DNA of 64,000 nucleotides from an uncultured Candidatus Binatia bacterium (lineage in GTDB: Bacteria; Desulfobacterota; Binatia; UBA9968; JAJDTQ01). Position numbers and translations under genes: made by a program. The stretch lies in contig OZ251459.1 of the NCBI GenBank assembly GCA_965242525.1, forward strand, positions 2,144,001 to 2,208,000, given 5' to 3'. The notes beneath the pieces are model-generated. The model was not told the origin of the DNA. It ran no database searches and saw nothing but the letters and a program-made list of their open reading frames with translations. This document shows, piece after piece, positions 19,110 to 62,019 of this stretch (position 1 is its first letter; every line of letters begins with the position of its first letter).

Positions 19110-19303
19110 GGAACCTCTGGACAATCGGTACAGGCGACATGAGCGCGTCCTTCGACTCCGCTTCGCTACGCTCAGGACGAACGGGGATAGCTCCGCTTCG
19201 CTCAGGACGAACAGGGAGAGATCCTCTACGCTCAGGACGAACGGGGATAGGAGTGTCAGGGTGAGGGAATCCATCCTGGATGTCTCGATTCTTCACAGGC
19301 TCC
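19110..19303 (+). mobile_element. MITE family 1, copy A (194 bp, 3 internal units)
   Basis: TIRs GGAACCTCTGGACAATCG / CGATTCTTCACAGGCTCC; flanks CTAA/CTGA; core CCTTCGACTCCGCTTCGCTACGCTCAGGACGAACGG. Confidence 0.8.
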
Positions 19304-19370
19304 CTGATTGTAGTGCCCATCGCGCGCGACGCCAAGCATAAACACGGCAAGCCGTCTTCCGCAATTTCCC

Positions 19371-20525
19371 ATGGAACCCTTCTCGCTCTACGTCCACATC
19401 CCCTACTGCGTCAGCAAGTGCCCCTACTGTGACTTCAACTCCCACGTGGCCGCCCGCATCCCCGAGGGGGAGTACACCGGCGCCGTGGCCCGGGAGCTGC
19501 GCCATCATGCCGGTTCGGAGCGGTGGGCCAACCGGTCCGTCAGGACGGTCTTCTTCGGCGGCGGCACGCCTTCGACCTTCCACGGGGACAGCATCGCCGC
19601 GCTGCTCGACCAGGCCGCCGGGCTGTTCCGCTTCGAGGAGCGGATGGAGGTCACGCTGGAAGCGAACCCCGGGGCCGCGGACGCCGGCCGGTTCCGGGAC
19701 TACCGGGGCTGCGGCGTCAACCGCATCAGCGTCGGCGCCCAGACCTTCGACCCCGGGCTGCTGCGGTTCCTCGGCCGCAGCCACGGGGCCGCGGAGACGC
19801 GCCGCGCGCTGGAGGGCGTCCGGGACGCAGGCTTCGACAACTTCAGCCTCGACCTGATCTACGCGGTCCCGGGGCAGACCGTGGACGGCGTGGACCGGGA
19901 CCTCAAGCTGGCCCTGGAAAGCCGGCCGCCCCACCTGTCCGCCTACAACCTCACCATCGAGGAAGGGACGCCCTTCCACGCCCGCTACCGCCAGGGCCGG
20001 CTGCGCCCGCTGGACGAAGAGACCGAGGTCGAGATGGCCCGGCGCATCGACCTCACCCTCGCCCGGGCCGGGCTGCGGCGGTACGAGATCTCCAACTACG
20101 CGCGCCCGGGCTTCGAATCGCGCCACAACGTCAACTACTGGGAGGGCGGCGACTACCTCGGCGTGGGCGCCGGCGCCCACAGCCATTACCGAAGGCCCGG
20201 AGACCCCCTGGGCGAGCGCTGGCAGAACGAGCGGTCCCCCGCGGCCTACATGCAGCGCACGCGCGAAGACGGCCACGCGGTCACCCAACGCGAGCGTCCG
20301 GGACCGCGCCAGGCCATGGCGGAACACCTGTTCACCGGGCTGCGGATGATCGAAGGGGTCCCGGTCCCCGCCTTCCGGCGCCGTTTCGGGACCACGCCCC
20401 GGGACGCTTTCCCCGCGGTCGGGGAGTGGCTCGGCGACGGCCTCCTGGCCGAAGAAGGCCAACGCCTCCGCTTCGCGCCCGAAGGGCTGCTGCTGGCGGA
20501 CGAACTCTTCCTTCGACTCGTGTGA
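19371..20525 (+). CDS. hemW: Radical SAM heme chaperone HemW
   Basis: LYVHIPYCVSKCPYCDFNS, FGGGTPS, YEISNY, HNVNYW. Confidence 0.9.
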   Translation: MEPFSLYVHIPYCVSKCPYCDFNSHVAARIPEGEYTGAVARELRHHAGSERWANRSVRTVFFGGGTPSTFHGDSIAALLDQAAGLFRFEERMEVTLEANPGAADAGRFRDYRGCGVNRISVGAQTFDPGLLRFLGRSHGAAETRRALEGVRDAGFDNFSLDLIYAVPGQTVDGVDRDLKLALESRPPHLSAYNLTIEEGTPFHARYRQGRLRPLDEETEVEMARRIDLTLARAGLRRYEISNYARPGFESRHNVNYWEGGDYLGVGAGAHSHYRRPGDPLGERWQNERSPAAYMQRTREDGHAVTQRERPGPRQAMAEHLFTGLRMIEGVPVPAFRRRFGTTPRDAFPAVGEWLGDGLLAEEGQRLRFAPEGLLLADELFLRLV

Positions 20526-20608
20526 ACGGAGGCTCGCCGGTCATCCGGCCGGGCGGCAACGCGCGTCCGGGCGGAAGCCGCTGCCGGGGGCCGTCAGGCG
20601 CCCACCCG

Positions 20609-21883
20609 TCACGTGCCCATCTCCCAGGAGGACAGGTAACGCTTCTGTTCCCGGGTGAGCTTGTCGATCCGGGCGCCCATGGCGGCGAGCTTGAGGCTCG
20701 CCACCCACTCCACCAGGGACGAGGGGACGTCATGGACCCGGGCCGACAGCTCGTCCCCCTGCTCGACCGCCCATTCGGAGGCCAGGGCCTGGGTTGCGAA
20801 GCTCATGTCCATGACCGAGGCCGGATGGCCTTCGGCCGCGGCCAGGTTCACCAGTCGGCCTTCGCCGAGCAGGAACAGGCGCTTCCCCCCGGGCAGGGTG
20901 TAGCAGTCCACGTGGTTCCTCACGTTGCGCTCGCGCTTCACCGCCATCTCGGTGAGGCCCTCGATGTCGATCTCGATGTCGAAGTGGCCGGAGTTGCAGA
21001 TGACGGCGCCGTCCTTCATGGCCCGCAGGTGCTCCTTGCGGATCACGTGCATGTCCCCGGTCAGGGTGATGAAGAGGTCGCCGGTCCGGGCGGCATCCTT
21101 CATGGGCATCACGTCGAAGCCGTCCATGGACGCCTCCAGGGCGCGCACCGGATCCACTTCGGTGACCGCCACCCTGGCCCCCATGCCCCGGGCCCGGGAC
21201 GCCACGCCCCGGCCGCACCAGCCGTAGCCGGCCACCACCACCCGTTTGCCGGCCAGCAGCACGTCCGTGGCCCGGATGACGCCGTCGATGGTGGACTGGC
21301 CGGTGCCGTAGCGGTTGTCGAACAGGTGCTTGGTGGCGGCGTCGTTGACCGCGATGATGGGGATCCTGAGGGCCCCGTTGGCCTCCAGGGCGCGCAGCCG
21401 GATGACCCCGGTGGTGGTCTCCTCCATGGACGCCACCATGCCGGAGGCCAGGTGGGCGTACTCCTGGTGCAGCATGGACACCAGGTCGGCGCCGTCGTCC
21501 ATGGTGATGACGGGCCGGTGGTCCAGCGCCGCCCGCAGGTGCCGGTAGTAGGTGTCGTGGTCCTCGCCGCGCACCGCGAACACCGGCACGCGCTCCTTCT
21601 TCACAAGGGCCGCGGCCACGTCGTCCTGGGTCGAAAGCGGGTTGGACGCGCACAGCGCCACGTCCGCGCCCCCGGCCTTCAACGTGCGCACGAGGTTGGC
21701 GGTCTCCGCGGTGACGTGGAGGCAGGCCGAGAAGCGCAGGCCCTTCAGGGGCTTCTCCTGCTCGAACCGGGCGCGCACGCTCCGCAGCACCGGCATCTCC
21801 TGGTCCGCCCACAGCACCCGCTTCCAACCGTCCGCGGCAAGGCCCGGGTCCGCCACGTCGAACTGCAACTTCGATCTCGCCAT
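20609..21883 (-). CDS. ahcY: Adenosylhomocysteinase
   Basis: CLHVTAETA, SNPLSTQD, EETTTGV, FDNRYGTGQS, GRLVNL, GHP. Confidence 0.97.
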   Translation of the reverse strand: MARSKLQFDVADPGLAADGWKRVLWADQEMPVLRSVRARFEQEKPLKGLRFSACLHVTAETANLVRTLKAGGADVALCASNPLSTQDDVAAALVKKERVPVFAVRGEDHDTYYRHLRAALDHRPVITMDDGADLVSMLHQEYAHLASGMVASMEETTTGVIRLRALEANGALRIPIIAVNDAATKHLFDNRYGTGQSTIDGVIRATDVLLAGKRVVVAGYGWCGRGVASRARGMGARVAVTEVDPVRALEASMDGFDVMPMKDAARTGDLFITLTGDMHVIRKEHLRAMKDGAVICNSGHFDIEIDIEGLTEMAVKRERNVRNHVDCYTLPGGKRLFLLGEGRLVNLAAAEGHPASVMDMSFATQALASEWAVEQGDELSARVHDVPSSLVEWVASLKLAAMGARIDKLTREQKRYLSSWEMGT

Positions 21884-21965
21884 GTTCCTCTCCCTCTCCG
21901 GCGGCCCGCGCGCACCGGGGCCGCCCGACGGTCACCGCCGGAAGGGCGCCGGGTGGGTCTCCAGC

Positions 21966-23141
21966 CTATTCTTCGAGTCCGCTCTTCAGGCCCGCCGCCC
22001 GGTCGGTCCGTTCCCACGTGAACAGGCCGTCCTCCGGGTTGCGGCCGAAATGGCCGTAGGCCGCGGACTTCTGGTAGATGGGCGCTCGCAGCTTCAGGGC
22101 TTCGATGATCCCCTTGGGGGTGAGCTCGAAATGCTCCCGCACCAGCCTCGCGATCTCGCGGTCCGGGGCCACGCCGGTGCCGAAGGTGTCGATGGCGATG
22201 GACACCGGCTCCGCCACGCCGATGACGTAGGCGAGCTGGATCTCGCAACGCCGGGCGAGGCCCGCGGCCACCACGTTCTTGGCCACGTAGCGGGCCACGT
22301 AGGCCGCGCTCCGATCGACCTTGGAAGGGTCCTTGCCCGAGAACGCGCCGCCGCCGTGGCGCCCCATGCCGCCGTAGGTGTCCACGATGATCTTGCGTCC
22401 CGTAAGGCCGCAGTCGGCCTGGGGGCCTCCGATCTCGAAGCTGCCGGTGGGGTTCACCAGGAACTGCGTGCGGTCGTCCAGGTATCCGGCCGGCACCACC
22501 GCCCGGACGACGCTGTCGATGATGGTCTCCCGGAGCTTGTCGTAGGGGACCTCCGGGACGTGCTGGGTGGAAACCACCACGTTGCTGACCCGGTGCGGCC
22601 TGCCGTCCCGGTACTCGACGCTGACCTGGGACTTGGAATCGGGCCGAAGGAAAGGCGCCTCCCCCGACTTCCTGACCTTGGCCAGGTAGCTCACCAGGTT
22701 GTGGGCGAGCTGGATCGGCAGGGGCATCAACTCATCGGTGTCGTCGCAGGCGTAGCCGAACATCATTCCCTGGTCGCCCGCGCCCTGCTCCTTGAACAGC
22801 CCCTGGCCTTCCGTGACCCCCTGGGAGATGTTGGGGGACTGGCGCTCCAAGTGCACGAGGACCTTGCACGTGTTGCCGTCGAAGCCCTTGGCCGGGTCGT
22901 CGTAGCCGATGTCCAGCGCCACCCGGCGCGCCACGCTCTCGTAATCCACCTTGCCCTTGCTGGTGATCTCCCCGGCGATGACCACCAGGTCGTTCTTGAC
23001 CAGGGTCTCGCATGCGACCCGGCTGTCGGGGTCCTCCGCCAGGTGGGCGTCGAGGACCGCGTCCGATATCTGGTCGCACATCTTGTCGGGGTGCCCCTCC
23101 GAGACCGATTCCGAGGTAAAGACAAAATCTTTGTTCGTCAT
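21966..23141 (-). CDS. metK: S-adenosylmethionine synthetase
   Basis: [35 protein letters not shown]. Confidence 0.98.
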
Positions 23142-23180
23142 GGATGTTCCCTGTCCGGCCCTTCCTTCCCGGAAGGGCCG

Positions 23181-23462
23181 CTAGTCACTCTCGCGAAACT
23201 TGTCGTCGATGAGCTGCTCGATGGCGAGCATCGCTTCCCGGGCGTCGTCCCCCCTGGTCTCGACGCGGATCTTGCTCCCCTTGGCGGCTCCCAGAGTCAG
23301 CACGCCCATGATGCTGCGCGCGTCCACCACGTTGTCGTCCTTGGAGATCTTCACCTCCGAGGAGAACCGGTTCACGGTCTGCACCAGCAACGCGGACGCC
23401 CGGGCGTGCATCCCGAGGCGGTTCTTTATCTCGATCCTCTTCTTGACGCGGTGCATGGGCAT
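23181..23462 (-). CDS. ptsH: Phosphocarrier protein HPr
   Basis: NRLGMHARAS (His15) and DARSIMGVL (Ser46); start approximate. Confidence 0.92.
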   Translation of the reverse strand: MPMHRVKKRIEIKNRLGMHARASALLVQTVNRFSSEVKISKDDNVVDARSIMGVLTLGAAKGSKIRVETRGDDAREAMLAIEQLIDDKFRESD

Positions 23463-23544
23463 GGGCCAGCGTCCCGGCTCCCCGGCCGGGCGCGCCGCGG
23501 CCTCCAACCCACTAGCAAAAAACCGGGCGGGAAGAAACCGCGGG

Positions 23545-24006
23545 TCACAGGTCCCGTTCCTTCTCCTCGATCAGGCTCACCACTTCCTCCGGGGTCTCCA
23601 CGCGCATGAGGCGTTCCCGCAGCCCGGCGTCCTTCACCAGCCGCGACACCCGCGCCAGGGCGTTGAGGTGCTCGGAAGTCGATCCTTCGGGCGCAACCAG
23701 CAGGAAGAAGATGTGGGTCGGGGCGCCGTCCTGGGCGTCGAAATCGACCCCTTCCGCACTGCGGGCGAAGGCGACGAACAAGCGCTCCAGCCCCGGGAGC
23801 TTGCCGTGGGGTATGGCGACTCCTTCCCCGATGGCGGTGCTGCATATCCTCTCCCGGGCACGGATCACCTCGAGCAGCCGCTGCGAGTCCTCGAACCCGT
23901 AGTGCCTCGACACCCGGGTCACCATCTCTTCCAGGACAGCGCCCTTGTCCCGCGCCCGGAGGCTCGGAATCACCGCTTCCGGGTCCAGAACGTCCGTGAT
24001 TCGCAA
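23545..24006 (-). CDS. ptsN: PTS EIIA, nitrogen-regulatory type
   Basis: RERICSTAIGEGVAIPHGK, HLNALARVSR; TTG start with GGAGG upstream. Confidence 0.88.
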   Translation of the reverse strand: MRITDVLDPEAVIPSLRARDKGAVLEEMVTRVSRHYGFEDSQRLLEVIRARERICSTAIGEGVAIPHGKLPGLERLFVAFARSAEGVDFDAQDGAPTHIFFLLVAPEGSTSEHLNALARVSRLVKDAGLRERLMRVETPEEVVSLIEEKERDL

Positions 24007-24050
24007 CCGCCACCCTCCTTTCCGGGGCTGCCGCGCCCGGCCCGCCGGCG

Positions 24051-25493: not shown

Positions 25494-25511
25494 CCCGGTG
25501 TCCCGCCTCCG

Positions 25512-26234
25512 CTACAGGCTGAACCCCTCGCCCAGATAGACCTTGCGGGCCTCGTCGCTGGAAGCGATGTGGCCCGGGGTCCCCTCGGCGAGCACCACCC
25601 CCCGGCTCAGGATGTAGGCCCGGGTGCAGAGCCGGAGGGTCTCCCTGACGTTATGGTCCGTGATGAGTATGCCGATGCCGGACTCGGTGAGCCGCCGGAT
25701 GACCGACTCGATGTCCGCCAGGGCGATGGGGTCCACCCCGGTGAAGGGCTCGTCCAGGAGCACGAAGAAAGGCGACAGCACCAGCGCCCGGGCGATTTCC
25801 ACGCGCCGCCGCTCGCCGCCGGACAGGGTGTCGGCCCTCCGGTCGGCCAAGTGGACGAGGCCGAACGTCCCCAGGAGCCGGCGGCTCCGTTCCTCCTCCT
25901 CTTCCTTGCCGAGCCGCAGGGTCTCCAGTATGGCCAACAGGTTCTGCCTGACCGTCAGGCCCCGGAACACCGAAGACTCCTGGGGCAGGTAGCTGATGCC
26001 GGCCCTGGCCCGACGGTAGATGGGCGCCGCGGTCAGGTCGGTCCCGTTGAGGGCGACCTTCCCTTCGTCGGCCCGGACCAGGCCGATCACGATGTGGAAC
26101 AGGGTGGTCTTGCCCGCCCCGTTGGGACCCAGGAGCCCCACGACCTCGCCACCGTGGACCTCCAGCGTGACCCGGTCCACCACACGCCGCCCCTGATATG
26201 CCTTGACGATTCCTTCCGCGTTGAGAACGCTCAT
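25512..26234 (-). CDS. lptB: LPS export ABC ATPase
   Basis: GPNGAGKT, LSGGERRRVEIARAL, ITDHNVRETL. Confidence 0.95.
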   Translation of the reverse strand: MSVLNAEGIVKAYQGRRVVDRVTLEVHGGEVVGLLGPNGAGKTTLFHIVIGLVRADEGKVALNGTDLTAAPIYRRARAGISYLPQESSVFRGLTVRQNLLAILETLRLGKEEEEERSRRLLGTFGLVHLADRRADTLSGGERRRVEIARALVLSPFFVLLDEPFTGVDPIALADIESVIRRLTESGIGILITDHNVRETLRLCTRAYILSRGVVLAEGTPGHIASSDEARKVYLGEGFSL

Positions 26235-26255
26235 GGGGGAGCTACCCGGCGGGCC

Positions 26256-26840: not shown

Positions 26841-26862
26841 GGAGCCGTACCCGGTCCTCCGG

Positions 26863-28586: not shown

Positions 28587-28587
28587 G

Positions 28588-29424: not shown

Positions 29425-31071
<1,647 letters not shown>

Positions 31072-31929: not shown

Positions 31930-32086
31930 GGAGCCGGTAACGACCGAGACATCCGGGATGGATCCCCTCCCCCTGGCCTTCCTGTCCCCGTTCGTCCTGA
32001 CACTCCTATTCCCGTTCGTCCTGAGCGTAGCGAAGCGAAGTCGAAGGACGCGCTCATGCCCCCTGTCCCGATTGTCAAGAGGTTTC
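31930..32086 (-). mobile_element. MITE family 1, copy B (reverse orientation)
   Basis: Right end CGATTGTCAAGAGGTTTC; left end degenerate; perfect 4-bp flanking repeat CGAA/CGAA. Confidence 0.78.
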
Positions 32087-51128: not shown

Positions 51129-52856
51129 TCAGCGCGGCGGCCGGCGATGCCACTCCTGGACGTTCCACAGGGTTGCGTCCCAGGCGTTGTGGCGCACCCC
51201 TCCGAGGGACAGCGCCCGGGCCGCCACCTCGCCCCGGTGGACCAGCGGGATCACCGCCCCGTCGCCCACCAGCATGTCGTTCATGCGCTTGGCGATTTCG
51301 GCGCGCCTCCCGATCCCCGGAGTCTTGGCAAGCAACGCCGCGAGTTCGTCGTACTCCGGGTTGCAGTAGCGTGAGATGTTGCGGCCGATCCACTGGTTCC
51401 CGGGCGCCGGGATCTCCTCGCACAGCCAACCCTGCAGGTATGCCTGGGGATCGGTGCCGTCGAAGTTGTTGGTGTACATCTGGATGTCCGCGTAGAACTT
51501 CTGGTAGGTGTCCGGGCTCGCCGGATCGCTGCCGAAGAACACCGACCCGCTGATGTTCTTCAACTCGGTCTCGACGCCGATCTCCCGCCACATCTGCTTG
51601 ACCAGGGCCTGGGTGCCCTGGCGGACCGAATTGGTGGAGGTCTGGTAGAGGATCGAAAGCCGCACCCCGTCCCTGGCGCGGACCCCGTCCGGGCCGCGCG
51701 CCCAGCCGGCTTCGTCCAGCAGCCGGTTGGCCCCGGCCACGTCCCGGGTCCTGCACCAGTCGTTGGCCGCGGAGGCATAGACCGGCGGGGCCGGGAGCAC
51801 GTTGCAGGTGACCCGACCCGCGGGGCCGTAACCCGCGTCCACCAGGACCTCCCGGTCGATGGCCATGGACAGGGCGCGCCGCACCGCGGGGTCCGAGAGG
51901 AAGGGGTGGGGGTTCCTGCCGTCCTGATAGGTGGAACGCTTGGCGCCCAGGGCCGGATCGGGGTTGGTGAGCTGCACCACCAGGCGCTCCACCAGGGTGC
52001 CGAAAGCGGACAACACTTCGCCCTTGCCCGCCTTGGCCATGACGGCGAGGATCTCCGGCTCCACCTGCAGGTTCCAGCCATAGTCGAACTCGCCGGTCTC
52101 CAGCACCGCCCGAGCCGACGAGACCGCGTCTCCACCGCCCTTCAGCAGGACCGAGGAGAAGGCCGGGCGGTCAGGGTCTCGGTAGCGGTCGTTGAGTACG
52201 TAGCGGACCACGTCGTTGGCCCGGAACTCCTGCACCTCGAAGGGGCCGGTGCCCACGGGACCGAAGTTCTCCTCCGTGCACTCCGGCGCCCTGGCGCCCA
52301 TGCACTTCTCGAACTGCTTCTTCTGGAGGACCGGACAGACCGAGCCGGCGAACGGGGCATAGGGGAACGGCATGGGGACGGCGAAGGAGATCCGCACCGT
52401 GTGGTCGTCCACCGCCTCCACGGACGCCACGTTCTGGAACCGGCTGGCCGCGTTGCAGCCGCCCTCGGGATGCATGCAGTAAGCCGCGGTGAAGGCCACG
52501 TCCGCGGCGGTGAACGGCGTGCCGTCCGACCACACCACGTCCTTTCGGAGCTTCCAGGTGATGGACTTGAGATCCGCGGCGACTCCGCGGTTGGCCACGG
52601 TGGGGATCTCCGACGCCAGGGCCGGCGACATGACGCCGTTCTCGTCGTAGCGCACCAGCGGCTCCAGGACCAGGGCGGCCGCGTGGATGTCCTTGGTCCC
52701 CCCCGACAGGAGCGGGTTCAGGATCGACGGCGCCTGCCAGTAGAGCAGCTTCAACTCGCCGTCCGCGCCGCGCCCGGCTTGCGCCGGGGACGCCAACGCC
52801 GCCAGAGCCGCCGCGGCCGCGATGAACAGTCCGAGCAATCGCATCTTCGCCCTCAT
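51129..52856 (-). CDS. Peptide ABC transporter substrate-binding protein (family 5)
   Basis: Signal peptide, WSDGTPFTAADV, PVGTGPF, VRRALSMAIDRE. Confidence 0.92.
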   Translation of the reverse strand: MRAKMRLLGLFIAAAAALAALASPAQAGRGADGELKLLYWQAPSILNPLLSGGTKDIHAAALVLEPLVRYDENGVMSPALASEIPTVANRGVAADLKSITWKLRKDVVWSDGTPFTAADVAFTAAYCMHPEGGCNAASRFQNVASVEAVDDHTVRISFAVPMPFPYAPFAGSVCPVLQKKQFEKCMGARAPECTEENFGPVGTGPFEVQEFRANDVVRYVLNDRYRDPDRPAFSSVLLKGGGDAVSSARAVLETGEFDYGWNLQVEPEILAVMAKAGKGEVLSAFGTLVERLVVQLTNPDPALGAKRSTYQDGRNPHPFLSDPAVRRALSMAIDREVLVDAGYGPAGRVTCNVLPAPPVYASAANDWCRTRDVAGANRLLDEAGWARGPDGVRARDGVRLSILYQTSTNSVRQGTQALVKQMWREIGVETELKNISGSVFFGSDPASPDTYQKFYADIQMYTNNFDGTDPQAYLQGWLCEEIPAPGNQWIGRNISRYCNPEYDELAALLAKTPGIGRRAEIAKRMNDMLVGDGAVIPLVHRGEVAARALSLGGVRHNAWDATLWNVQEWHRRPPR

Positions 52857-52927
52857 GCCCCCGCCCTCCGGGTCTCTTCCGGAACCTCCGGTCAATTCCG
52901 GCTCGACGTGTTTCTCCCTGTGAAAAA

Positions 52928-52990
52928 GCGCGTCCTTCGACTTCGCTACGCTACGCTCAGGACGAACGGGGCAATCGTTCGGGGTTTCCT
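52928..52990 (+). repeat. MITE family 1 partial copy (core + right TIR)
   Basis: GCGCGTCCTTCGACTTCGCTACGCTACGCTCAGGACGAACGGGG...ATCGTTCGGGGTTTCC. Confidence 0.7.
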
Positions 52991-53011
52991 TCGGCAAGGC
53001 CCGGTCCGCGG

Positions 53012-53863
53012 TCAACTGAACAGGACCTTGGCCATCTCCGACCGGTACCGGTCCGCCAACTCGCTTCCCGGCCCCAGGACCTCGAAGATCCGGACCATCG
53101 CCTTGCGGGCGCCGTCGTCCTCGAAGGCGCGGTCTTTGCGCAGCACCGCCAGGAACTCTTCCAACGCGGCCTCGTAGAGCTCTTCCGCGGCAAGGGCCTG
53201 GGCCAGCCGGAAACGCAACTCCACGCTGTCCGGGGCCGACGACAACCGCTGCCTGAGGGAATCCACGTCCGCGCCGTCCCCCTGGCTCAACTGCTGCCGG
53301 GCGATCAGCCGGTCGGCCTCCCTGCGCTCGGGCGAGCCCGGGGGCACCCGCTCGAGCAGCGCCAAGCCGCGCTCCGCATCCGTACCGAGCAGGATGCGTC
53401 CCATGCCGAGCAGCGCCCCCGCGTGGGGCGGCGACTCGTCCAGCACCTGTTGGTAGATTTTCGATGCCCCTTCCGCGTCGCCCCGGGACCACAACCCGTC
53501 CGCCTCGGCCGCCATCTCGTCCTGACGCGAGGGCGCCACCGAACCCAGGACCTCGCGGACTCCGGCTTCGGGAAGCGCCCCGGTGAACTCCGCGGCAACG
53601 GCGCCGTCCTTGAAGACCTTGACCGCGGGGATCCCCTGTATGCCGAAGCCGGACGCAAGCCCGGGGTTCTCGTCCACGTTGACCTTGGCCAGGAGGAGCT
53701 TGCCCTCGTATTCCTCCACCACCCGCTCCAGCACCGGACCCAGGACCCTGCACGGGCCGCACCACGGCGCCCAGAAGTCCACCGCCACCGGCGTTTCTTC
53801 GGAACGCTTCAGCACTTCCGCTTCGAACTCGGCGTCGCCAACGTCGAAAACCAGCGATTCCAT
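53012..53863 (-). CDS. cnoX: Thioredoxin-TPR chaperedoxin (YbbN/CnoX-like)
   Basis: DFWAPWCGPC, TPR-like helical C-term ending ARKAMVRIF..YRSEMAKVLF. Confidence 0.88.
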   Translation of the reverse strand: MESLVFDVGDAEFEAEVLKRSEETPVAVDFWAPWCGPCRVLGPVLERVVEEYEGKLLLAKVNVDENPGLASGFGIQGIPAVKVFKDGAVAAEFTGALPEAGVREVLGSVAPSRQDEMAAEADGLWSRGDAEGASKIYQQVLDESPPHAGALLGMGRILLGTDAERGLALLERVPPGSPERREADRLIARQQLSQGDGADVDSLRQRLSSAPDSVELRFRLAQALAAEELYEAALEEFLAVLRKDRAFEDDGARKAMVRIFEVLGPGSELADRYRSEMAKVLFS

Positions 53864-53919
53864 GATGTTCCGGGACCTTTCCGCAGGGCCGGACCGGGTA
53901 CGGGCGAGAGCCCGGCCCG

Positions 53920-54405
53920 CTATTCCCCGAGCGGGTCGAAGTCCGACCCGTTGAGGGTGAACCGACGCTCCACCGGGGTGGGCTTCAGGATCGTCTGCAT
54001 GACGTAGCACCCGTTCTCGGCGTTGCGGACCACTGCGGCCACCCGCTCCGCGGGCTCGTCGGACTCCAGGTCCAGCCTGGTCTCGAACCCGACCCCCTGG
54101 GCCTCCACGGTCTCCCGCAGCACCGACCCCTGGCTCTTGAAACGCCCGGTCACGTGGACCCGGGCCTTGCCGATCTTCACCTTCATCATTTCCCCGTACC
54201 GGGAAACCTGGGTCAGCAGTCAGAACCCCAGGGAAAGCGCGAAGTACGCCAACGGCGGCGGCGCGCTGTTGTCGCCGCCGGTCCGCTCGGCCTCGTCGCA
54301 CAGGACGGTGAACCCCCGGGCCTCGCCGCTCTTCTTCTGCCGTTCCAGGGCCGCGGCGTCGGCCTCGATCACGATCTCCCGCTTGACGGTCACGTCTTCG
54401 GCCAT
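53920..54405 (-). CDS. OsmC-like protein with in-frame TGA (probable selenocysteine), 161 aa
   Basis: DE..GGDNSAPPP..ALSLGF-TGA(54220-54222)-LLTQVSRYG continuing in frame to AENGCY; hairpin just downstream of the TGA. Confidence 0.78.
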
Positions 54406-54437
54406 ATATCAACCTCCAGGGTTTGGTTTGCGAAACA

Positions 54438-54677
54438 GGAACCTCCGAACGATCGGGACAGGGGGCAAGGCTTCCTTCGACTTCGCCTCGCGTCCTTCGA
54501 CTCCGCTTCGCTACGCTCAGGACGAACGGAGATGGGAGTCCACGCTCAAGGCGAACGGGGATGGGAGCGCAACCCTTCCCAACCGACTCGTGCTGGTCAC
54601 CCATGTTCAAGGCGAACGGGGATGGAGTGTCAGGGCGAGGGAGTCCATCCCGGATGCCTCGATCGTTCAGCGGTTCC
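54438..54677 (+). mobile_element. MITE family 1, copy E (240 bp, expanded and degenerate)
   Basis: TIRs GGAACCTCCGAACGATCG / CGATCGTTCAGCGGTTCC. Confidence 0.78.
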
Positions 54678-54743
54678 AAAGGTAACCCATCAGCCGGAGA
54701 CCGTCAATCGACCCGGCTGCACGAAGCACCGTCAAGCACCGTC

Positions 54744-55244
54744 ATGGCCCGGCGACACGCAGCCCTGATCCCGCTTTCACGCGACCATCACCAGGGGTTG
54801 ACCCTGGCCTTGCGCTGCCGCAAGCACGCCCTCGGGCAGCTCAACCCCGGCGACGCCGCATCCCTGGAGGCATGCGCCGCGGAAGCCTCCCGTTTCTTCG
54901 GCGAGAGCCTGACGCCCCACTTCGAGGCCGAAGAGAAGGTCCTGTTCCCGCTGATGGCGGAATACCGGGAGAGCCGGGAGCTCGTGGCCGAGCTCCGGGG
55001 CGAGCACCGGGAGTTCCACCGTCTGCTGGCGCGGGCCGGGGATCCCCGCGGGCTGCGGAAGTTCCTGTTCGACTTCGGCGACCTGCTGGAGCGGCACATA
55101 CGGAGCGAAGAGCGCGGCCTCTTCCCCGCCTTCGAGAGGCTCGTGCCGCAGGAGGAAGCCGACCGGGCCGGCCGGGAGTTGCGGCAAACCCTGGAAGGGA
55201 GCCGTGGGGCGTCCCGAGACCCCGAACTGCCGGAGTCGTCATGA
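54744..55244 (+). CDS. Hemerythrin/HHE cation-binding domain protein
   Basis: LSRDHH, HFEAEEKVLFP, EH, HIRSEERGLFP. Confidence 0.85.
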   Translation: MARRHAALIPLSRDHHQGLTLALRCRKHALGQLNPGDAASLEACAAEASRFFGESLTPHFEAEEKVLFPLMAEYRESRELVAELRGEHREFHRLLARAGDPRGLRKFLFDFGDLLERHIRSEERGLFPAFERLVPQEEADRAGRELRQTLEGSRGASRDPELPESS

Positions 55245-55263
55245 CGAAACCCCGAACGGCCCT

Positions 55264-55307
55264 CCCCGTTCGTCCTGAGCGCAGCCGAAGCCGAGTCGAA
55301 GGACGCG
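55264..55307 (-). repeat. Stand-alone core unit of MITE family 1
   Basis: CCCCGTTCGTCCTGAGCGCAGCCGAAGCCGAGTCGAAGGACGCG. Confidence 0.7.
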
Positions 55308-55317
55308 TAGCGTAGTA

Positions 55318-55416
55318 TCCTGTAACAGTGTCCAAGTCACTGGCATGGAGTATCTTGTCATGCACGGAAAACATGTCTTGCGCCGCATCCCCGCTGACAG
55401 AGCGAATGTTACAGGG
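55318..55416. repeat. 99-bp repeat family 2, copy 1
   Basis: Terminal IR CCTGTAACA...TGTTACAGG; colinear with 55570-55668. Confidence 0.75.
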
Positions 55417-55418
55417 TA

Positions 55419-55559
55419 GAAACCTCTGAACAATCGGGACAGAGAGCATGGGCGCGTCCTTCGACTTCGCTTCGCTACGCTCAGGACGAACGGGAATAGG
55501 GGCGTCAGGGTGAGGGAATCGGGAATCCATCCTGGATGTCTCGATTGTTCAGAGGTTTC
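55419..55559 (+). mobile_element. MITE family 1, copy G (141 bp)
   Basis: Perfect 18-bp TIR GAAACCTCTGAACAATCG/CGATTGTTCAGAGGTTTC; perfect TSD GGTA. Confidence 0.85.
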
Positions 55560-55569
55560 GGTAGTAGTT

Positions 55570-55668
55570 CCCTGTAACAGCGACCGAGTCACTGGCGTGG
55601 AACATTCCATCATGCACCGCGAACATGGCTCGCGCTGTATCCCTGATGATAGAGTAACTGTTACAGGG
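55570..55668. repeat. 99-bp repeat family 2, copy 2
   Basis: Terminal IR CCCTGTAACAG...CTGTTACAGGG. Confidence 0.75.
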
Positions 55669-55677
55669 TAGTAGTTT

Positions 55678-55720
55678 CCCGTTCGTCCTGAGCGAAGCGA
55701 AGCGAAGTCGAAGGACGCGC
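55678..55720 (-). repeat. Stand-alone core unit of MITE family 1
   Basis: CCCGTTCGTCCTGAGCGAAGCGAAGCGAAGTCGAAGGACGCGC. Confidence 0.7.
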
Positions 55721-55756
55721 TTTCCCAAGGGAGAGCCGGCATTGAACGGACGTTCC

Positions 55757-55966
55757 ATGAACACCAAGACCGCGATCCTGTCCATCGACGGCCTGACCCC
55801 CGACACCGCAGCCGAGCTGTCGAAGACGCTCCGGGATGTCACGGGCGTCACCGAAGTCGATTTCTCGCTGGAACGAAAGGTAGTCGTGGTGGAGTTCGAC
55901 CCGGAGGCCGCAAGCGTGGACGGGCTCACGCGCGTGGTCCTGTCCAACGGCTACAAGGTCCTCTGA
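55757..55966 (+). CDS. HMA-fold (CopZ-like) protein lacking CxxC
   Basis: LSIDGLTPDTA..GVTEVDFSLE..VEFDP..GYKV. Confidence 0.7.
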   Translation: MNTKTAILSIDGLTPDTAAELSKTLRDVTGVTEVDFSLERKVVVVEFDPEAASVDGLTRVVLSNGYKVL

Positions 55967-56029
55967 CCCGCGGGGGTGAAACTCCCGTCCACGAGATGCG
56001 GACGGGGCCTTCGCCGTCTCGTTGGCCGG

Positions 56030-57628
56030 CTACTTGGTCACGTTGCGGTAATAGACCTGGTCGAAGTTCGAGCCGGCCACGAACCCCCGGACGTTGCGGC
56101 GGCGCGCGAACTGCTCGCTCTGCTGGAACATGACCACGTAGGGTCCCTCGGTCTGGAGACGCTCCTGTAGTTGCAGGTAGAGCTGCCTGCGCTTGGCCGG
56201 ATCCATCTCGTCGCGGGCCTGCACCACCATGGCGTTCAGGTCGTCCTGCGCCCATGCGTTGCGCCATGCGAGCACGCCGGTGAGCCCGGCCTCGGGGCGG
56301 TTGTCCGGGTTGTGCGCGAAGGAGTCCGCGTTGGAGTGCGGGTCCACGTAGTCCGGCGACCAGTGGGCCAGGATCAACTCGTGCTTGCGCCCCCGGTACC
56401 TGGGCCACAGGACCTTGCCTTCCCGGGCCACGACCCGGGCCTTGACGCCGACCCGCGCGAGGGTCGCCTGGACCGACCGCGCGATCAGTGGGAACGGCGG
56501 CGTGGTGAGGGTATCGATGCGCACTTCGAACCCGTCGCCGTGGCCTGCCTCGGCCAGCAGCGACTTGGCTTTCTCCACGTCGAGCCGGTACGGCGTCCCG
56601 GTATAGGCCGCCCACAGCCCCCTGGGCCAGAACGCCTGGTGCACCATGAACTGGCCCGCCAGGAAGGACTCCGCCATGCCCCGGTAGTCCACCGCGTGCC
56701 GCAGGGCCTGCACCACCTTGGCCTTGCCGAGGATCGGGTGCGATGCGTTGGCCGCCATATAGACCACCGTGCCGGTGGGAGAGCCGTCGATGGCCACGTC
56801 CGGGCGGCCCTCCACGGCCTTGATCTGGTCGGAGGTGAGGTTGCGCGCCAAGTCGATGTCGCCCTGCTCCAGCATCCGCCTCTGGGCGGAGGACTCGGGC
56901 ACGTGGCGCAGGACCACGCGCCGGGTCCCCGGAGGTCCCCGGCGGTAGTCGGGGTTGGCTTCGAGCGCCACCGACTCGTTGGCGGTCCAGCTATCGAGCC
57001 GGAACGGACCGGAGCCCGCGCTGTGGGACTTCAGCCACTCGTGGCCCAGGTCCCCGTCCTTCTCGTGGGCGAGCGCGAGTCGTTTGTCCACCACCGAGCC
57101 GACGCCGGCCGAGAGCACGTTCAACACGAGACCCGGGGAGAAGTCCTCCACGATGGTGACGCGCACGCGGCGTTGGTCCACCACCTGGACCAGGTCCTCT
57201 ACGTTGTCCGCGTTCCAGCCCAACTGGGTGAGGATGAAGGCCGGGGTCTTGTCGAGTTTCACCACCCGCTCCAGGGAGAACTCCACGTCCTCGGGACGCA
57301 CCGGGTTGCCGGAGTGGAACCTGAGACCCTGCCGGATCCGGAAGGTGACGGTCTTGCCGTCGGCGCTCACCGTGTGGCTCTCGGCGACGCCGCCCACGAG
57401 CCTGTCCGGGGCCTCGGGCTCGAACGTCATGATGCGGTCGTAGATGTTGGCCAGGAGCTCGCCGGCGGTGAACTCGAAGGCTTCGGCCGGGTCCAGGGTA
57501 ACCATGTCGGCCATGTCCTTGGCCATGACCAGGGTGTCCCCGGGGGTCACGGCCCGGACCGACGCCGCGGCAAGGATCAACGCCAACGCACACGACAGGA
57601 CGCCTGACAGGCGGAGATAAAGACACAT
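56030..57628 (-). CDS. ABC transporter substrate-binding protein (family 5, DppA-like)
   Basis: Signal peptide, TLDPAEAFE, FHSGNPV, GSGPF. Confidence 0.9.
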   Translation of the reverse strand: MCLYLRLSGVLSCALALILAAASVRAVTPGDTLVMAKDMADMVTLDPAEAFEFTAGELLANIYDRIMTFEPEAPDRLVGGVAESHTVSADGKTVTFRIRQGLRFHSGNPVRPEDVEFSLERVVKLDKTPAFILTQLGWNADNVEDLVQVVDQRRVRVTIVEDFSPGLVLNVLSAGVGSVVDKRLALAHEKDGDLGHEWLKSHSAGSGPFRLDSWTANESVALEANPDYRRGPPGTRRVVLRHVPESSAQRRMLEQGDIDLARNLTSDQIKAVEGRPDVAIDGSPTGTVVYMAANASHPILGKAKVVQALRHAVDYRGMAESFLAGQFMVHQAFWPRGLWAAYTGTPYRLDVEKAKSLLAEAGHGDGFEVRIDTLTTPPFPLIARSVQATLARVGVKARVVAREGKVLWPRYRGRKHELILAHWSPDYVDPHSNADSFAHNPDNRPEAGLTGVLAWRNAWAQDDLNAMVVQARDEMDPAKRRQLYLQLQERLQTEGPYVVMFQQSEQFARRRNVRGFVAGSNFDQVYYRNVTK

Positions 57629-57735
57629 GGGAAAGCCTCCTGGTATCACAGCGGTCAGCGGGGCCGCGCAGCCGGCGTTCTCATCCCTGCCATACGTGCG
57701 AGGCGAACACAATCTGGCGTCGCTCCGACACAACG

Positions 57736-57903
57736 CTATTTCCTGACGAAACCGACGTAAACGTAGAGCGCAACCAGAACGCCTGAGACCACCAGGCGGA
57801 TATTGCCGTAGAAGGGATCGACCCGGAGTCCCAGGAACATAGCCCCGGAAACGACGAGATAGAGAACCGCCAGGGCGACGACGTGAACCAGGATCTTCAA
57901 CAT
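57736..57903 (-). CDS. Small two-TM membrane protein (55 aa)
   Basis: Two hydrophobic helices separated by DPFYG. Confidence 0.5.
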   Translation of the reverse strand: MLKILVHVVALAVLYLVVSGAMFLGLRVDPFYGNIRLVVSGVLVALYVYVGFVRK

Positions 57904-57914
57904 GCCTAGGTCAC

Positions 57915-58100
57915 GGGATGGGAGTGCGATGATCGTCTCGTGCGCCGGAAGCGGAATGGCGCGCAACTCGGTGACGCATACTTGGGCGTTGCCGTTGACG
58001 GGTGGAAGCAAGTGTCGAGAAGGTGGCCGTTGTAGAGCGCCATCAAGCTCCATGCCTTCTCTTCTGAGAATGCGCCGCCGGACCGATGGACGTAGTTCAA
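57915..58100 (-). pseudogene. Frameshifted C-terminal remnant of a BsuBI/PstI-like (Eco57I-type) DNA methyltransferase
   Basis: LNYVHRSGGAFSEEKAWSLMALYNGHLLDTCF, then a frame change to VNGNAQVCVTELRAIPLP; resembles the NHLN..NS..D.YFR..NG.TQV.AT.LR tail of this family as I recall it. Confidence 0.55.
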
Positions 58101-58485
58101 AGGGTGCGGGCGGGGGGGACTCGACCCCCCCTGTGGCCTACTTGGCCCAGTGTTCGACAGTGAGTGGCTTCGTACTGCATGCGCATGTCCGCTCCCCTCC
58201 TGGAGGACCCGCTAAGCCACGAGCTCGCACACGCCATCAAGCCTGAGTTTGATTCGCATTTCTACCTCCTTCTCTGATATGAACTCAATGCCCACAGGGG
58301 ACACGAGACCCAAGAAGGATCGAACATGCGCGACAGCCTTGAAGCCACACACAAAGTCACCCACCATATTAGCCAAGCTCTGAAACTGAGGACAGGGTAG
58401 CAAATATCCCGTACGATTTCAATATGTAGAATTGTCCAATGATCCATCTACCTTCGATCTTTGCCACGGGACCGGTTCCCCTTGC

Positions 58486-61400
58486 CTACCGCGGCGCCGC
58501 CAGTAGCATGGCGTCCAGCAGGCGCTTCTCTTCGCTGACCGAAGGGTACAGAGCGGACAGGGCGTTGGCAAGACGCAGGAAGTCGGGGCCGCGCTCGTGT
58601 TCCGCCTTCAGCAGGTTGCGCAGGGCTTGGCTGCGGCCCGATGCCTGCAAGAGCATGGCCGCGTGCACCCGGTCCAGCGTGGTGGCGTCCGGGGCCTGCA
58701 TCTCCGCGTCGTCCGCGATGAGGACCTTCCCCCCGCGGCTTCGGGCGCGCTTCTTCCGGGGGGCAGCCTCCATTTCGGGGAAAAGCACCTGCTGGACGGT
58801 GACCCGCGGGTCGCGTTCCAACCATTCCGCGGCCGTGTCCGCGCCGTCTTCGCCGAAAAGCTGCTTCCCTCGCTCCGTGGCGTTTATCAGCCGCACCACG
58901 CCCTTGTCCGTCTCGATGATCCGTCCCTCCCATTTGGACAGTTCGATGCCCAAGGGCTGGGCCAAGCGGCGCGCCACGTCGAAGACGAGGCTGTAGCCCC
59001 CGGGCTTGTCGCGGGGCGCGTCGTCCGCCTCGTCGTGGTCCTCGTCCTCCGCAACCTCGCCGCTGTCTTCGGAGGCGTCGTCGGCTCCGGTGCTTTGCAG
59101 GGTCCAGAGGAACAGGGCAGTCAGGCGGGTGTCCTCTTCCAGCACCCCGGCCATGCCGTTGCGCGCCTTCGCCTCCGCAGCCCCGAGGACGTTTTCGAGG
59201 GCGGTGCGCCCGACCACTTCCCACACCCGTTCCAGGTACTCCGGCAGGCCCACCTCACGCCCCTCCGCGGTCTCCACCTGCCGGTAGCGGCTGTATATCT
59301 CCAAGGCCGGGCCGATGCAGGCGAAGACCAGGTCCGCGCCCCGGACCCCTTCGCCTTGCAGCCGTTCCATCCATTCGCCCACGCGGATGGGCAGTTCGCG
59401 CAGCACGTCCGCCCAATCGCCCACCGGCGCGTCGTCGAGGCGGGGCCGGCAGACTAGGTGAACGCTGGTGGCCAGGGACGCGGTATCACGCGCATTGAGA
59501 CGAGAACCCATCTCCGTTGCCACCGGCCAAGAGCCGGTGATGGTCCAGCCGCCGCTGATCATCCCGGACAGCAGCGCTTCCCAGCCCTCGGTGGTCTTGT
59601 GGGCGAAGACGACCGATCCGACACCGTCCTGGCGCAGGATGCGCCGCCCTTCGGCAAAAGCCCGAACCATTCCCGATTCGTAGGTCCTTGCCGTCTTGGT
59701 CGAACTGCTGAGCCGATGCGGTCGGTCAACGACGATTTCTTCTTCTTTCGGGGTCAGGTCGTGCGAGCCGGTGAGGTTGCAAAGAGCCATCATTTGTTCT
59801 GGCAAGGCGCGCTTGAGCCAGACCAGGAAGAAATCGGACAAGTGTGCATAGGGAACGGCGTCGTAGTAGGGCGGGTCGGTGAACCAGACACTGGCGGCGG
59901 CGTCGGGCAAAGGATAAGCCTTGGCGTCTGCGGGTTGCACTTGGCCAAGGTTGGATTCGGGCCATGAGTCAATAACATTGGCAATCCAGTCCAGCGCCCC
60001 GGCATAACCGCCAGTGGATTCCGAAAAGGGGTTGCTCTCGCTGTAGTCCCAGACCATGGGGAGAGCCTGTCGAGAATAGACGCCCTCATGCTTCTCGCCT
60101 GATGTATGCCATCGGCATAGCGAGCATCCTGCATTGGCGGTTCGTGTCAACGCCAGCGCCAGAGGTTGTTTCGCCATGTCGTCGATCGTTGGGAACCTCT
60201 GAACGATCGGGACAGGGGGCGTGAGCGCGTCCTTCGACTTCGCTTCGCTACGCTCAGGACGAACGGAGGTCTCCACTTCGCTACGCTCAAGATGAACGGG
60301 CGTCTCTGCTTCGCTACGCTCAAGACGAACGGGGATGGGATGGTCAGGGTGAGGGAGTCCATCCCGGATGTCTCGATTGTTCGGGAGTTTCGTTGATGAT
60401 TTCGTCAATTCCACCAGCGCCGCCTTCTGCCGCGCGGTGAATAGATCGCCCCATGTCGTCATTCCGTAGATTGGTACGCTGATGCGTCGAATCTCGTTCA
60501 GCGAAATCGGCTCGTCCGGCGCCGGACAAGGCCCCTGCCTCCCGCCCCGTTCCCATTCATCGAGAATCCCCGCCAGCCGCGCCTGCGCCTTGTGCACCGC
60601 CGCGTAATCGGCGTCCGTGGGTAGCCGATAGCGCCGGCCAGGCTCATCTTCCTTCAGCGTCACCACCGCGGTCATGCGCGCACCGCCCACGCGCTTCCCT
60701 TTGCCATCGAAGATCACGTCCGCACCGCCGCGCTGCTCGGCAAGTTGCGCCCGCACCCGCTCCGGCGGTAACACAACGCGGCAACACGGGCAGGTCGCCT
60801 TTGCCCGCGTCACCGTGCCCGCACGCACGTCCTTGTCGGTCTTCGGCTCGAAAATCTCCAACTCGACACGCGGCGGCTCCTTGGCCGGCTGCACGACCTT
60901 ATGGAACCTCTGAACAATCGGGACAGGAGGCATGAGCGCGTCCTTCGACTCCGCTTCGCTACGCTCAGGATGAACGGAGGTCTCCGCTTCGCTACGCTCA
61001 GGACGAACGGGGATAGGCGTGTCAGCGTGAGGGAATCCATCCTGGATCTCTCGATCGTTCAGATGTTTCTTGTAGCGGAGCGCCTGACGGCCTCGGACCT
61101 TGATTCGTTTGCCGCCCTCCCTCTTGAAGACCGCCTTCTTCGCAAGCCACAACGACCGTAGCAACGGAATCTCTGCCCCGCAGTTTGGAGCTTCGCACCG
61201 CACCGTGCGCGCCCACAAGTAGGCGATGGGCGTGCTCCCGTCCGGGTCCGCAGGGTAGAGGTCGGCCAGTTCCCGTTCCGCGGCCTGCCTGACCTCGCTG
61301 CCGACCTTGCGCAACTCATCGGCCAGCCCCGAACCGTGGCGCGGGATGTCTTCCAGCATCACCTTGAGGATCAGGCAGGCCACCGGGTTCAGGTCGCTGG

Positions 61401-61884
61401 CGAACGCCTCGCAGCCCAACCGCAATGCTTCCAACGGAATCGAGCCGCCGCCCGCGAACGGGTCCACCACCAGGGGCGGCTCCACGCCGTGGGCCGCCCT
61501 CACCAGCGCCCGGGCCGTTTCGAGCCGGACGCCGTTTGCGGCAAGGCTCCAGTTGGCGAAGTCGGCGATGAACTTGAGCAAGACCCGCCGCAAGCCCTCG
61601 TCCGGCTCGATGGCCTCGCTCCACCCTTCCGGCCGCCCGTGCATCTTGAGGAGGATCCGCCGCGCCTCCTTCTTGAACGCTTCCGGGCAATGCGGGTCGC
61701 ACGGGTCCGGCAGCAGCAGCGCCATCAGCATGGCCCGGGAGGAGGCCAGCGGCCGCCGCGCCCACCACAGGTGCAGCGTGGAAGGGTGCCCGTGCCGGAT
61801 GGACTTCTCCCGCGCCGCGTGCCGCGATACCTCGGCAATGGGGAAGTCCACCTCCGCCAGCCGCCTGCACTCCCTGGGGATCAT
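58486..61884 (-). CDS. DUF1156 adenine-specific DNA methyltransferase carrying two in-frame MITE insertions
   Basis: LHLWWARRPL, DPFAGGGSIPLE, Zn knuckles CEAPNC/CPCC, FTDPPYYD. Confidence 0.9.
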   Translation of the reverse strand: MIPRECRRLAEVDFPIAEVSRHAAREKSIRHGHPSTLHLWWARRPLASSRAMLMALLLPDPCDPHCPEAFKKEARRILLKMHGRPEGWSEAIEPDEGLRRVLLKFIADFANWSLAANGVRLETARALVRAAHGVEPPLVVDPFAGGGSIPLEALRLGCEAFASDLNPVACLILKVMLEDIPRHGSGLADELRKVGSEVRQAAERELADLYPADPDGSTPIAYLWARTVRCEAPNCGAEIPLLRSLWLAKKAVFKREGGKRIKVRGRQALRYKKHLNDREIQDGFPHADTPIPVRPERSEAETSVHPERSEAESKDALMPPVPIVQRFHKVVQPAKEPPRVELEIFEPKTDKDVRAGTVTRAKATCPCCRVVLPPERVRAQLAEQRGGADVIFDGKGKRVGGARMTAVVTLKEDEPGRRYRLPTDADYAAVHKAQARLAGILDEWERGGRQGPCPAPDEPISLNEIRRISVPIYGMTTWGDLFTARQKAALVELTKSSTKLPNNRDIRDGLPHPDHPIPVRLERSEAETPVHLERSEVETSVRPERSEAKSKDALTPPVPIVQRFPTIDDMAKQPLALALTRTANAGCSLCRWHTSGEKHEGVYSRQALPMVWDYSESNPFSESTGGYAGALDWIANVIDSWPESNLGQVQPADAKAYPLPDAAASVWFTDPPYYDAVPYAHLSDFFLVWLKRALPEQMMALCNLTGSHDLTPKEEEIVVDRPHRLSSSTKTARTYESGMVRAFAEGRRILRQDGVGSVVFAHKTTEGWEALLSGMISGGWTITGSWPVATEMGSRLNARDTASLATSVHLVCRPRLDDAPVGDWADVLRELPIRVGEWMERLQGEGVRGADLVFACIGPALEIYSRYRQVETAEGREVGLPEYLERVWEVVGRTALENVLGAAEAKARNGMAGVLEEDTRLTALFLWTLQSTGADDASEDSGEVAEDEDHDEADDAPRDKPGGYSLVFDVARRLAQPLGIELSKWEGRIIETDKGVVRLINATERGKQLFGEDGADTAAEWLERDPRVTVQQVLFPEMEAAPRKKRARSRGGKVLIADDAEMQAPDATTLDRVHAAMLLQASGRSQALRNLLKAEHERGPDFLRLANALSALYPSVSEEKRLLDAMLLAAPR
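60192..60391 (+). mobile_element. MITE family 1, copy I (200 bp, 3 units), in frame within the DUF1156 gene
   Basis: TIRs GGAACCTCTGAACGATCG/CGATTGTTCGGGAGTTTC; perfect TSD GTTG; 200+4=204 bp. Confidence 0.88.
60903..61069 (+). mobile_element. MITE family 1, copy J (167 bp, 2 units), in frame within the DUF1156 gene
   Basis: TIRs GGAACCTCTGAACAATCG/CGATCGTTCAGATGTTTC; flanks TTAT/TTGT; 167+4=171 bp. Confidence 0.88.
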
Positions 61885-61886
61885 GA

Positions 61887-62019
61887 GGAACCTCTGGACA
61901 ATCGGGTCAGGGGACATGAGCGCGTCCTTCGACTCCGCTTCGCTACGCTCAGGACGAACGGGAATAGGGGATCAGGGTGAGGGAGTCCATTCCGGATGTC
62001 TCGATTGTCCAGAGGTTCC
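61887..62019 (+). mobile_element. MITE family 1, copy K (133 bp), immediately upstream of the DUF1156 start
   Basis: Perfect TIR GGAACCTCTGGACAATCG/CGATTGTCCAGAGGTTCC. Confidence 0.85.

Follow-up and report, generated by a model that had tools for sequence, protein, structure and literature searches.

How a single stretch of uncultured bacterial DNA comes to carry seven full copies of one short repeat, two of them read through within one reading frame, is the question raised by the window analyzed here, a stretch of 64,000 nucleotides (C1:2144001-2208000) from G000, a Candidatus Binatia metagenome-assembled genome (MAG) of 4.23 Mb and 67% G+C in 7 contigs with an estimated completeness of 98.96%. 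An earlier note, made from the letters alone, had described these repeats as a frame-neutral element with ends like those of an insertion sequence (IS) around an expandable, hairpin-forming core, and had proposed that the element is pre-adapted to land in genes. We find that the family is very probably a MITE (miniature inverted-repeat transposable element), that is, a non-autonomous derivative of an IS5-family IS with an older, genus-wide repeat in its middle. As mini-transposons go, the element is ordinary; it lies mostly between genes and has no special build for sitting inside them.

Direct reading of the window sequence bore out the seven full copies (Table 1), their 18-bp terminal inverted repeats (TIRs), the flank repeats given for each copy, and the lengths of 134, 141, 167, 194, and 200 bp on which the earlier description was built. 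Three copies have perfect 4-bp flank repeats (CGAA, GGTA, and GTTG), two have repeats that agree at 3/4 bases, and the remaining two have repeats that agree at 2/4. Measured against a 134-bp base, the 167- and 200-bp copies add one and two 33-bp units, respectively, and the 194-bp copy adds two 30-bp units. The 157-bp copy, with its degenerate left end, and the 240-bp copy fall outside this scheme of lengths. The TIR pattern that we used, G(G/A)AACCTCTG(A/G)AC(A/G)ATCG, has 11 matches in the window at ≤2 mismatches, where 0.03 are expected and 0/100 shuffles reached 11.

Genome-wide, the pattern is matched 129, 141, 145, and 149 times at 0, 1, 2, and 3 mismatches (564 in total), compared with 0 matches at ≤2 mismatches and 11 at 3 mismatches when it is read backwards, and the repeat extends beyond its 18 bp to approximately 23 bp. 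Pairing of opposite-strand TIR matches 60-600 bp apart yielded 171 two-ended copies in G000, which we refer to as family 1. The flanking 4 bp are identical in 70/171 copies and agree at 3/4 bases in another 37/171, compared with 1/171 perfect repeats in a control shifted by 10 bp, and duplication lengths of 2, 3, 5, 6, 8, and 9 bp gave no signal among the 171 copies. The perfect 4-bp target-site duplications (TSDs), which are as reproducible as had been claimed for a non-autonomous element, represent 51 different AT-rich 4-mers without a consensus. Nearly all copies are short: 165/171 span 78-298 bp, and the other six reach 335-385 bp. Lengths peak at 131-134 and 139-141 bp, with 141 bp the single commonest. 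A profile search over 137 positions returned 957 matches in 643 clusters, all on C1, and the 53 best copies of 130-142 bp have a median identity of 90% to their own consensus. Translated, the copies give short peptides and meet stops in most of the frames; they hold no transposase gene, and when whole copies are folded, the TIR stem dominates (z of about -5).

An autonomous element with matching ends is present in the sister genome G036 (OZ241979.1), the nearest relative with the TIR-bounded element. This partner IS (L078:1740-2969) is 1230 bp long, is flanked by the TSD TCAA/TCAA, and ends in GGAACCTCTGAACAATTC (left inverted repeat, IRL) and GGAACCTCTGATTTATTC (right inverted repeat, IRR); its locus shows the inverted repeats AGGAACCTCTGAACAATTC / GAATAAATCAGAGGTTCCT, which lie 1194 nt apart. 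The encoded transposase of 319 aa (L078:1913-2869, minus strand) scores 352 bits (cut-off 140) against NF033581, an NCBIfam equivalog named "IS5 family transposase," and also matches PF01609 (115 bits) and PF05598. Elements of the IS5 group are, by ISfinder criteria, approximately 1-1.5 kb long, have ends starting with GG or GA, and generate a 4-bp TSD, and the partner IS fits these hallmarks in its ends (GGAACC...), its 1230 bp, and its TSD. Over their first 20 nt, the family-1 ends match the IRL at 16-17 positions and the right end at 12. A second G036 copy (L079:4521-5750) differs from the first at 4/1230 nt. G000 itself holds a relic at C1:2465162-2466027 in which IS positions 334-694 are deleted, with 83-85% identity and TTTG on both sides, as well as four IS end fragments. 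An intact transposase was not found in G000 by tblastn, and PF01609 gave one weak fragment there compared with 15 matches in G036. Together, the G036 element with its shared termini and NF033581 transposase and the deleted relic in G000 uphold the relation to IS5 elements that had been claimed from the termini.

Searching for the partner IS in G000 through TIR matches paired 600-6000 bp apart gave 16 candidates, none of which had good ends together with a TSD, and the partner was reached instead through PF01609 matches in G036. An 18-mer scan of the wider genome collection returned at least 57 loci, where by our own estimate approximately 140 chance matches are expected, and among the matches listed, those outside G036 showed no convincing second end at IS distance (≤5 mismatches). 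In two Chloroflexi/Dehalococcoidia MAG records (L066:2501-2555 and L067:2501-2700), a shared element begins with the identical 18-nt end, next to a ctag flank, and a Wenzhouxiangella MAG (L033:2501-2562) contains a 62-bp mini-palindrome built of the two ends; these ends may belong to related IS5-type elements in other phyla. In G036, the transposase frame of the intact IS continues into a 659-aa open frame (L078:1910-3889) whose upstream part resembles a TIR-domain protein (here the protein domain), and the IS may have inserted into or next to such a gene.

The two copies read through in the window make it possible to compare filled sites with empty ones. The host open reading frame (ORF) encodes a methylase with an N-terminal DUF1156 domain, which we call paralogue A, and the copies at 60192 and 60903 add 68 and 57 codons to it, respectively, including the TSD. 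Paralogue B (C1:1634813-1638199), which is 94% identical to A, has MITEs at both of these sites too, each with the flanks seen in A, and since the site that holds 167 bp in A holds 134 bp in B, one 33-bp unit has been gained or lost in place. Paralogue C (C1:2076900-2079959), a 1040-aa open frame, is without both MITEs, as are the orthologues in G036, G031, G006, and G016. At site 1, that of the 60903 copy, paralogue C and the orthologue from G036 are both missing exactly 171 bp (167+4), and site 2 lies within a stretch that is variable between paralogues. Another empty site was found at the G036 orthologue of the 31930 site, where a single CGAA stands without an element. Empty alleles, on which the earlier note had made its proposal depend, therefore exist in a paralogue, in an orthologue, and at the G036 counterpart of the 31930 site. 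With these, the family shows short length, TIRs, a TSD of fixed 4 bp, filled and empty sites, and an autonomous IS with matching ends, the features by which a MITE is recognized.

Paralogues A and B also indicate how the inserts have evolved. Outside the MITE columns, dN/dS between the two is 0.18 (dS 0.18), and within these columns it is 0.82 (5 synonymous and 13 non-synonymous changes), both being two-sequence Nei-Gojobori estimates that gene conversion between the paralogues could distort. After the insertions, the methylase remained under constraint and the inserts drift nearly neutrally, the pattern to be expected if rare in-frame insertions are the ones that survived. More family-1 copies are located 300-500 bp upstream of paralogues C and B (G000:C1:2076457-2076589 and 1638741-1638872, respectively), which makes the methylase neighborhood a local MITE hotspot.

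The interior of the element has a different distribution from its ends. The core, approximately 45 bp at query positions ~36-80, occurs alone and at up to 100% identity in 16/18 same-genus genomes sampled and in 1/12 from other genera of the order. The TIRs, at ≤1 mismatch, number 270 in G000, 30 in G036, and 0 in the other 26 genus genomes. A genus-wide core and TIRs confined to 2/28 genomes mean that the core predates the TIR-bounded element, in line with the suggestion that an older repeat was captured. In loci without TIRs from three relatives, the core forms inverted doublets (L003 and L004) or direct repeats (L002). Its 3' part forms a minisatellite of 33/34-bp units, 1-8 per copy, with one unit in 115 copies, two in 31, three in 18, and 4-8 in 6; unit spacing is 33 bp in 41/95 cases and 34 bp in 22/95. 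The core is expandable, as had been claimed. On the other hand, the hairpin ascribed to it was not recovered. The 48-nt core region, folded as DNA, gives -4.5 kcal/mol (z = +1.48), and 189/200 shuffles fold as well or better, showing that the core alone is neither a hairpin nor palindromic.

Many G000 cores look bare but stand between IS5-like ends of another kind, in the order GGAACGTCTGATCGATTCCGG, core, AATCGTTCAGGGTTTCC, and we refer to these as family 2. Family-2 copies measure approximately 110 bp, frequently with 4-bp repeats at their flanks, and show unit expansions as in family 1. Counts of the family-2 end are 92 in G000 and 86 in G036; of the other 26 genus genomes, two have it once each and 24 lack it. 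From these counts, family 2 predates the split between G000 and G036, and it was in the G000 lineage that family 1 burst. The two families meet at fixed sites. Upstream of the methylase start, paralogue A has a full family-1 copy, B has a chimera of family 1 and family 2 joined at the core, and C has a family-2 copy; similarly, the family-1 copy at 19110 in G000 is matched at the orthologous G036 site by a family-2-type element of approximately 96 bp. Both sides could be classified for 194 cores, and 15 of these are candidate hybrids; 4/6 that we inspected are real, one of them with a perfect TGAA TSD.

We propose the following mechanism for the family. Both ends of each copy are copied from the left end of the IS (GGAACCTCTGAACAAT...) and flank the older repeat of approximately 45 bp. 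An IS5-family DDE transposase would recognize these ends and, acting in trans, cut the element out and paste it into AT-rich 4-bp targets, which are duplicated upon insertion. The source of this transposase is intact in G036, and since only deleted relics survive in G000, the approximately 170 two-ended copies there are probably no longer mobile. After insertion, copies gain and lose units in place, possibly through slippage or unequal exchange, and the hybrids and family switches at fixed sites may reflect homologous recombination or conversion at the core shared with the older family 2. The two insertions into a variable region of the DUF1156 methylase owe their survival to the chance of being in frame and free of stops.

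Several points weigh against this account. The recognition of the TIRs by the transposase and the mobilization in trans are read from sequence identity only. The second G036 copy of the IS has no TSD (AAGA/TTTA), and no intact partner IS is present in the G000 assembly, although an unassembled copy is conceivable. At most 2/4 flank bases match in 64/171 copies, which indicates that many copies have decayed, recombined, or been replaced and are not cleanly inserted. The limits given with the dN/dS values above and with the gene-spanning tests below weigh on the same side.

That the element is frame-neutral by design, stop-free, and pre-adapted to insert into genes like Rickettsia palindromic elements (RPEs) is highly improbable. 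The proposal has some appeal because 134, 167, and 200 bp all become multiples of 3 with the 4-bp TSD (134+4 = 46 codons), because 33 bp is the commonest unit spacing, and because both insertions are read through in a methylase of 1143 aa, have been kept in two paralogues, and lie in a gene under constraint. Among the 171 copies, however, lengths are random modulo 3 (remainders of 0, 1, and 2 in 63, 50, and 58 copies; length plus 4 a multiple of 3 in 58/171; chi-square p = 0.47), the very outcome that the earlier note had named as decisive against frame neutrality. The commonest length of 141 bp does not give a multiple of 3 when 4 is added, 34-bp spacings are frequent too, and the columns encoded by the MITEs evolve nearly neutrally. 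The several stop-free frames that had been reported fare no better, since the mean number of open frames per copy is 2.1 of 6, compared with 3.4 in random genome segments of equal lengths. For gene targeting, we excised each copy in silico and asked whether a coding ORF then spans the site, using no annotation but our own codon log-odds model, which was trained on long ORFs and chose the correct frame in 385/400 test windows of 50 codons. The strict form of this test placed 1/171 copies in spanning ORFs compared with 2345/4000 random positions (59%), but it missed the methylase, whose composition is atypical, so that a few genic copies in foreign genes could escape it. A lax form, introduced for this reason, gave 23/171 copies compared with 2076/3000 positions (69%). 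Four of these 23 are the methylase copies, and for the other 19, a Pfam search of the flanks found a domain on 1/38 pieces and never on both sides, although a missing domain is no proof that a flank is non-coding. Credibly genic copies therefore amount to 4/171, from 2 insertion events in one methylase lineage, and we found neither the frequent in-frame ORF insertion nor the conserved encoded peptide that characterize RPEs. The family is strongly intergenic, a location that is usual for MITEs, and contrary to the proposed pre-adaptation to genes, the frame neutrality of a few window copies is a matter of which rare genic insertions survived, not a property of the family or its design.

The remaining alternatives concern how copies spread. 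Repetitive extragenic palindromic (REP) sequences and their hairpin-forming doublets (REPINs) are associated with Y1 transposases of the REP-associated tyrosine transposase (RAYT) type, and one could suppose that such an enzyme, not an IS5-family DDE transposase, spread the TIR-bounded elements. The core is indeed short, abundant, and genus-wide, it forms inverted doublets in relatives, and a single-copy Y1_Tnp gene of approximately 336 aa (for example, L092:1456-2481 in G009, and L093 in G015) is present in 24/27 other genus genomes. Yet G000 and G036, the two carriers of TIR-bounded elements, have no Y1_Tnp match (nor do G002 and G005), and at the syntenic locus, the gene is cleanly absent, with 127 bp in G000 (C1:2870071-2870197) and 167 bp in G036 replacing approximately 1.17 kb. 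REPs also show neither 4-bp TSDs nor ends identical to those of an IS5-family IS, and the core alone is not palindromic. We therefore consider spread by a Y1 transposase to be extremely improbable. The two 3.3-kb Y1_Tnp loci that we inspected contain no core and lend no support to a RAYT connection, and a link between the core and the Y1_Tnp gene is hypothetical. It is also very unlikely that most copies arose by segmental duplication, gene conversion, and recombination, with the families as products of concerted evolution. Such events did occur, given that the methylase with both inserts was duplicated, hybrid elements exist, and one site can hold different families both between G000 and G036 and among paralogues A, B, and C; the poor flank repeats of 64 copies would fit as well. 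They do not account for perfect TSDs of so many different 4-mers at unrelated sites with diverse flanks, for clean filled and empty sites, or for the excess of TIR matches in G000 over G036 next to a matching IS. Recombination is real but secondary to transposition. A less remote, though still unlikely, extension of the MITE reading is a switch in mobilization, in which a REP/REPIN-like core was orphaned by loss of Y1 in the clade of G000 and G036 and rescued as cargo of a DDE transposon, with the MITE families forming one recombining pool of end modules around a single core. This possibility builds on the coexistence of the core with a single-copy Y1 gene in most of the genus, on the clean loss of that gene in G000 and G036, and on the bracketing of the core there by IS5 ends in at least two families that recombine and replace each other.

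Favoring the reading of the family as an IS5-derived MITE, we compared it with known systems. IS5-derived type II MITEs are likewise small (~130-240 bp) and non-coding, carry the TIRs of an IS5 IS, have a 4-bp TSD, occur in many, mostly intergenic copies, and are presumed to be mobilized in trans. Here, by contrast, both ends come from the IRL, an older genus-wide repeat with a minisatellite fills the interior in place of IS sequence, and the partner IS is intact only in a sister genome. Pneumococcal BOX elements have a modular build, boxA-(boxB)n-boxC. They are named in a review (PMC10969869), and the BrickBuilt MITE of Porphyromonas gingivalis has a minisatellite interior with a 23-nt unit (Klein et al. 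2015, PMC4596501). Both share with family 1 inverted-repeat ends around a tandem array of variable unit number and an intergenic location. The unit here is 33/34 bp instead of 23 nt, it derives from a repeat that also stands alone across the genus, and both the partner IS and the TSD have been identified. In-frame MITE insertions have been described before, with examples in RPEs, enterobacterial repetitive intergenic consensus (ERIC) sequences, and the QMITEs of Coxiella (PMC10969869 and PMC5896051). According to that review, nearly half of the 44 RPE copies of Rickettsia conorii are in ORFs, each encoding a conserved peptide (Ogata et al. 2000, 2002, via PMC10969869). The two methylase insertions resemble RPEs and QMITEs in being in frame, in being read as an extra peptide, and in the purifying selection on the host gene. 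The family differs from RPEs in the small fraction of genic copies, in the stops in most frames, and in a nearly neutral peptide. A full-text literature search found no paper describing this element, which is weak evidence that it is unpublished.

The family thus provides a MITE from an uncultivated lineage that is fully documented in its ends, TSD, partner IS, relics, empty sites, and lineage-specific bursts. It shows the assembly of a MITE from IS ends and a pre-existing host repeat, followed by diversification through minisatellite change and the exchange of modules. In annotation, spurious peptides that recur, such as '...PVRPERSEAE...', can be traced to it, as can the 57- and 68-residue inserts in the DUF1156 methylase, and it corrects the attractive but wrong idea that frame neutrality is a family property.

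Table 1. Repeat copies and the methylase reading frame in the window (window coordinates).
Feature	Position	Strand	Remarks
Family-1 MITE, 194 bp	19110..19303	+	three core units, spacing 30+30; flanks CTAA/CTGA
Family-1 MITE, 157 bp	31930..32086	-	left TIR degenerate; perfect TSD CGAA/CGAA
Family-2 MITE, ~109 bp	52881..52989	+	different IS5-like ends; core common to family 1
Family-1 MITE, 240 bp	54438..54677	+	three unit matches, spacing 29 and 61; flanks AACA/AAAG
Bare core repeat, without TIRs	55256..55308	-	
Family-1 MITE, 141 bp	55419..55559	+	form with 7-bp GGGAATC duplication; perfect TSD GGTA/GGTA
Partial family-2 copy	~55676..55760	-	core and family-2 left end
Methylase ORF (paralogue A), 1143 aa, DUF1156-type	58486..61917	-	two in-frame MITE insertions
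Family-1 MITE, 200 bp	60192..60391	+	three units, 33+33; perfect TSD GTTG/GTTG; inside methylase ORF
Family-1 MITE, 167 bp	60903..61069	+	two units (one extra 33-bp unit); flanks TTAT/TTGT; inside methylase ORF
Family-1 MITE, 133 bp	61887..62019	+	flanks ATGA/AGAA; directly upstream of methylase start codon

Among the copies outside the methylase, the 240-bp copy lies between divergent genes, upstream of an ORF with a hemerythrin domain. Between 55330 and 55680 of the window, a short sequence (…ctgttacagggtagtag…/…ccctgtaacag…) recurs around the MITE at 55419 and before the partial family-2 copy at 55676, which suggests a local duplication or another small repeat. We saw no obvious multi-gene defense system around the window copy of the methylase; its neighbors at 62133-63332 (-) and 51129-57733 (-) are an AAA_14/DUF4143 ATPase and two SBP_bac_5 solute-binding proteins. 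In other genomes, Y1_Tnp-like pieces are found inside open frames of 1003-1272 aa that are homologues of the DUF1156 methylase (G010:C1:756592-756828, G012:C1:3738923-3739150, and G032:C1:4612449-4612673), and the G010 frame begins with such a piece.

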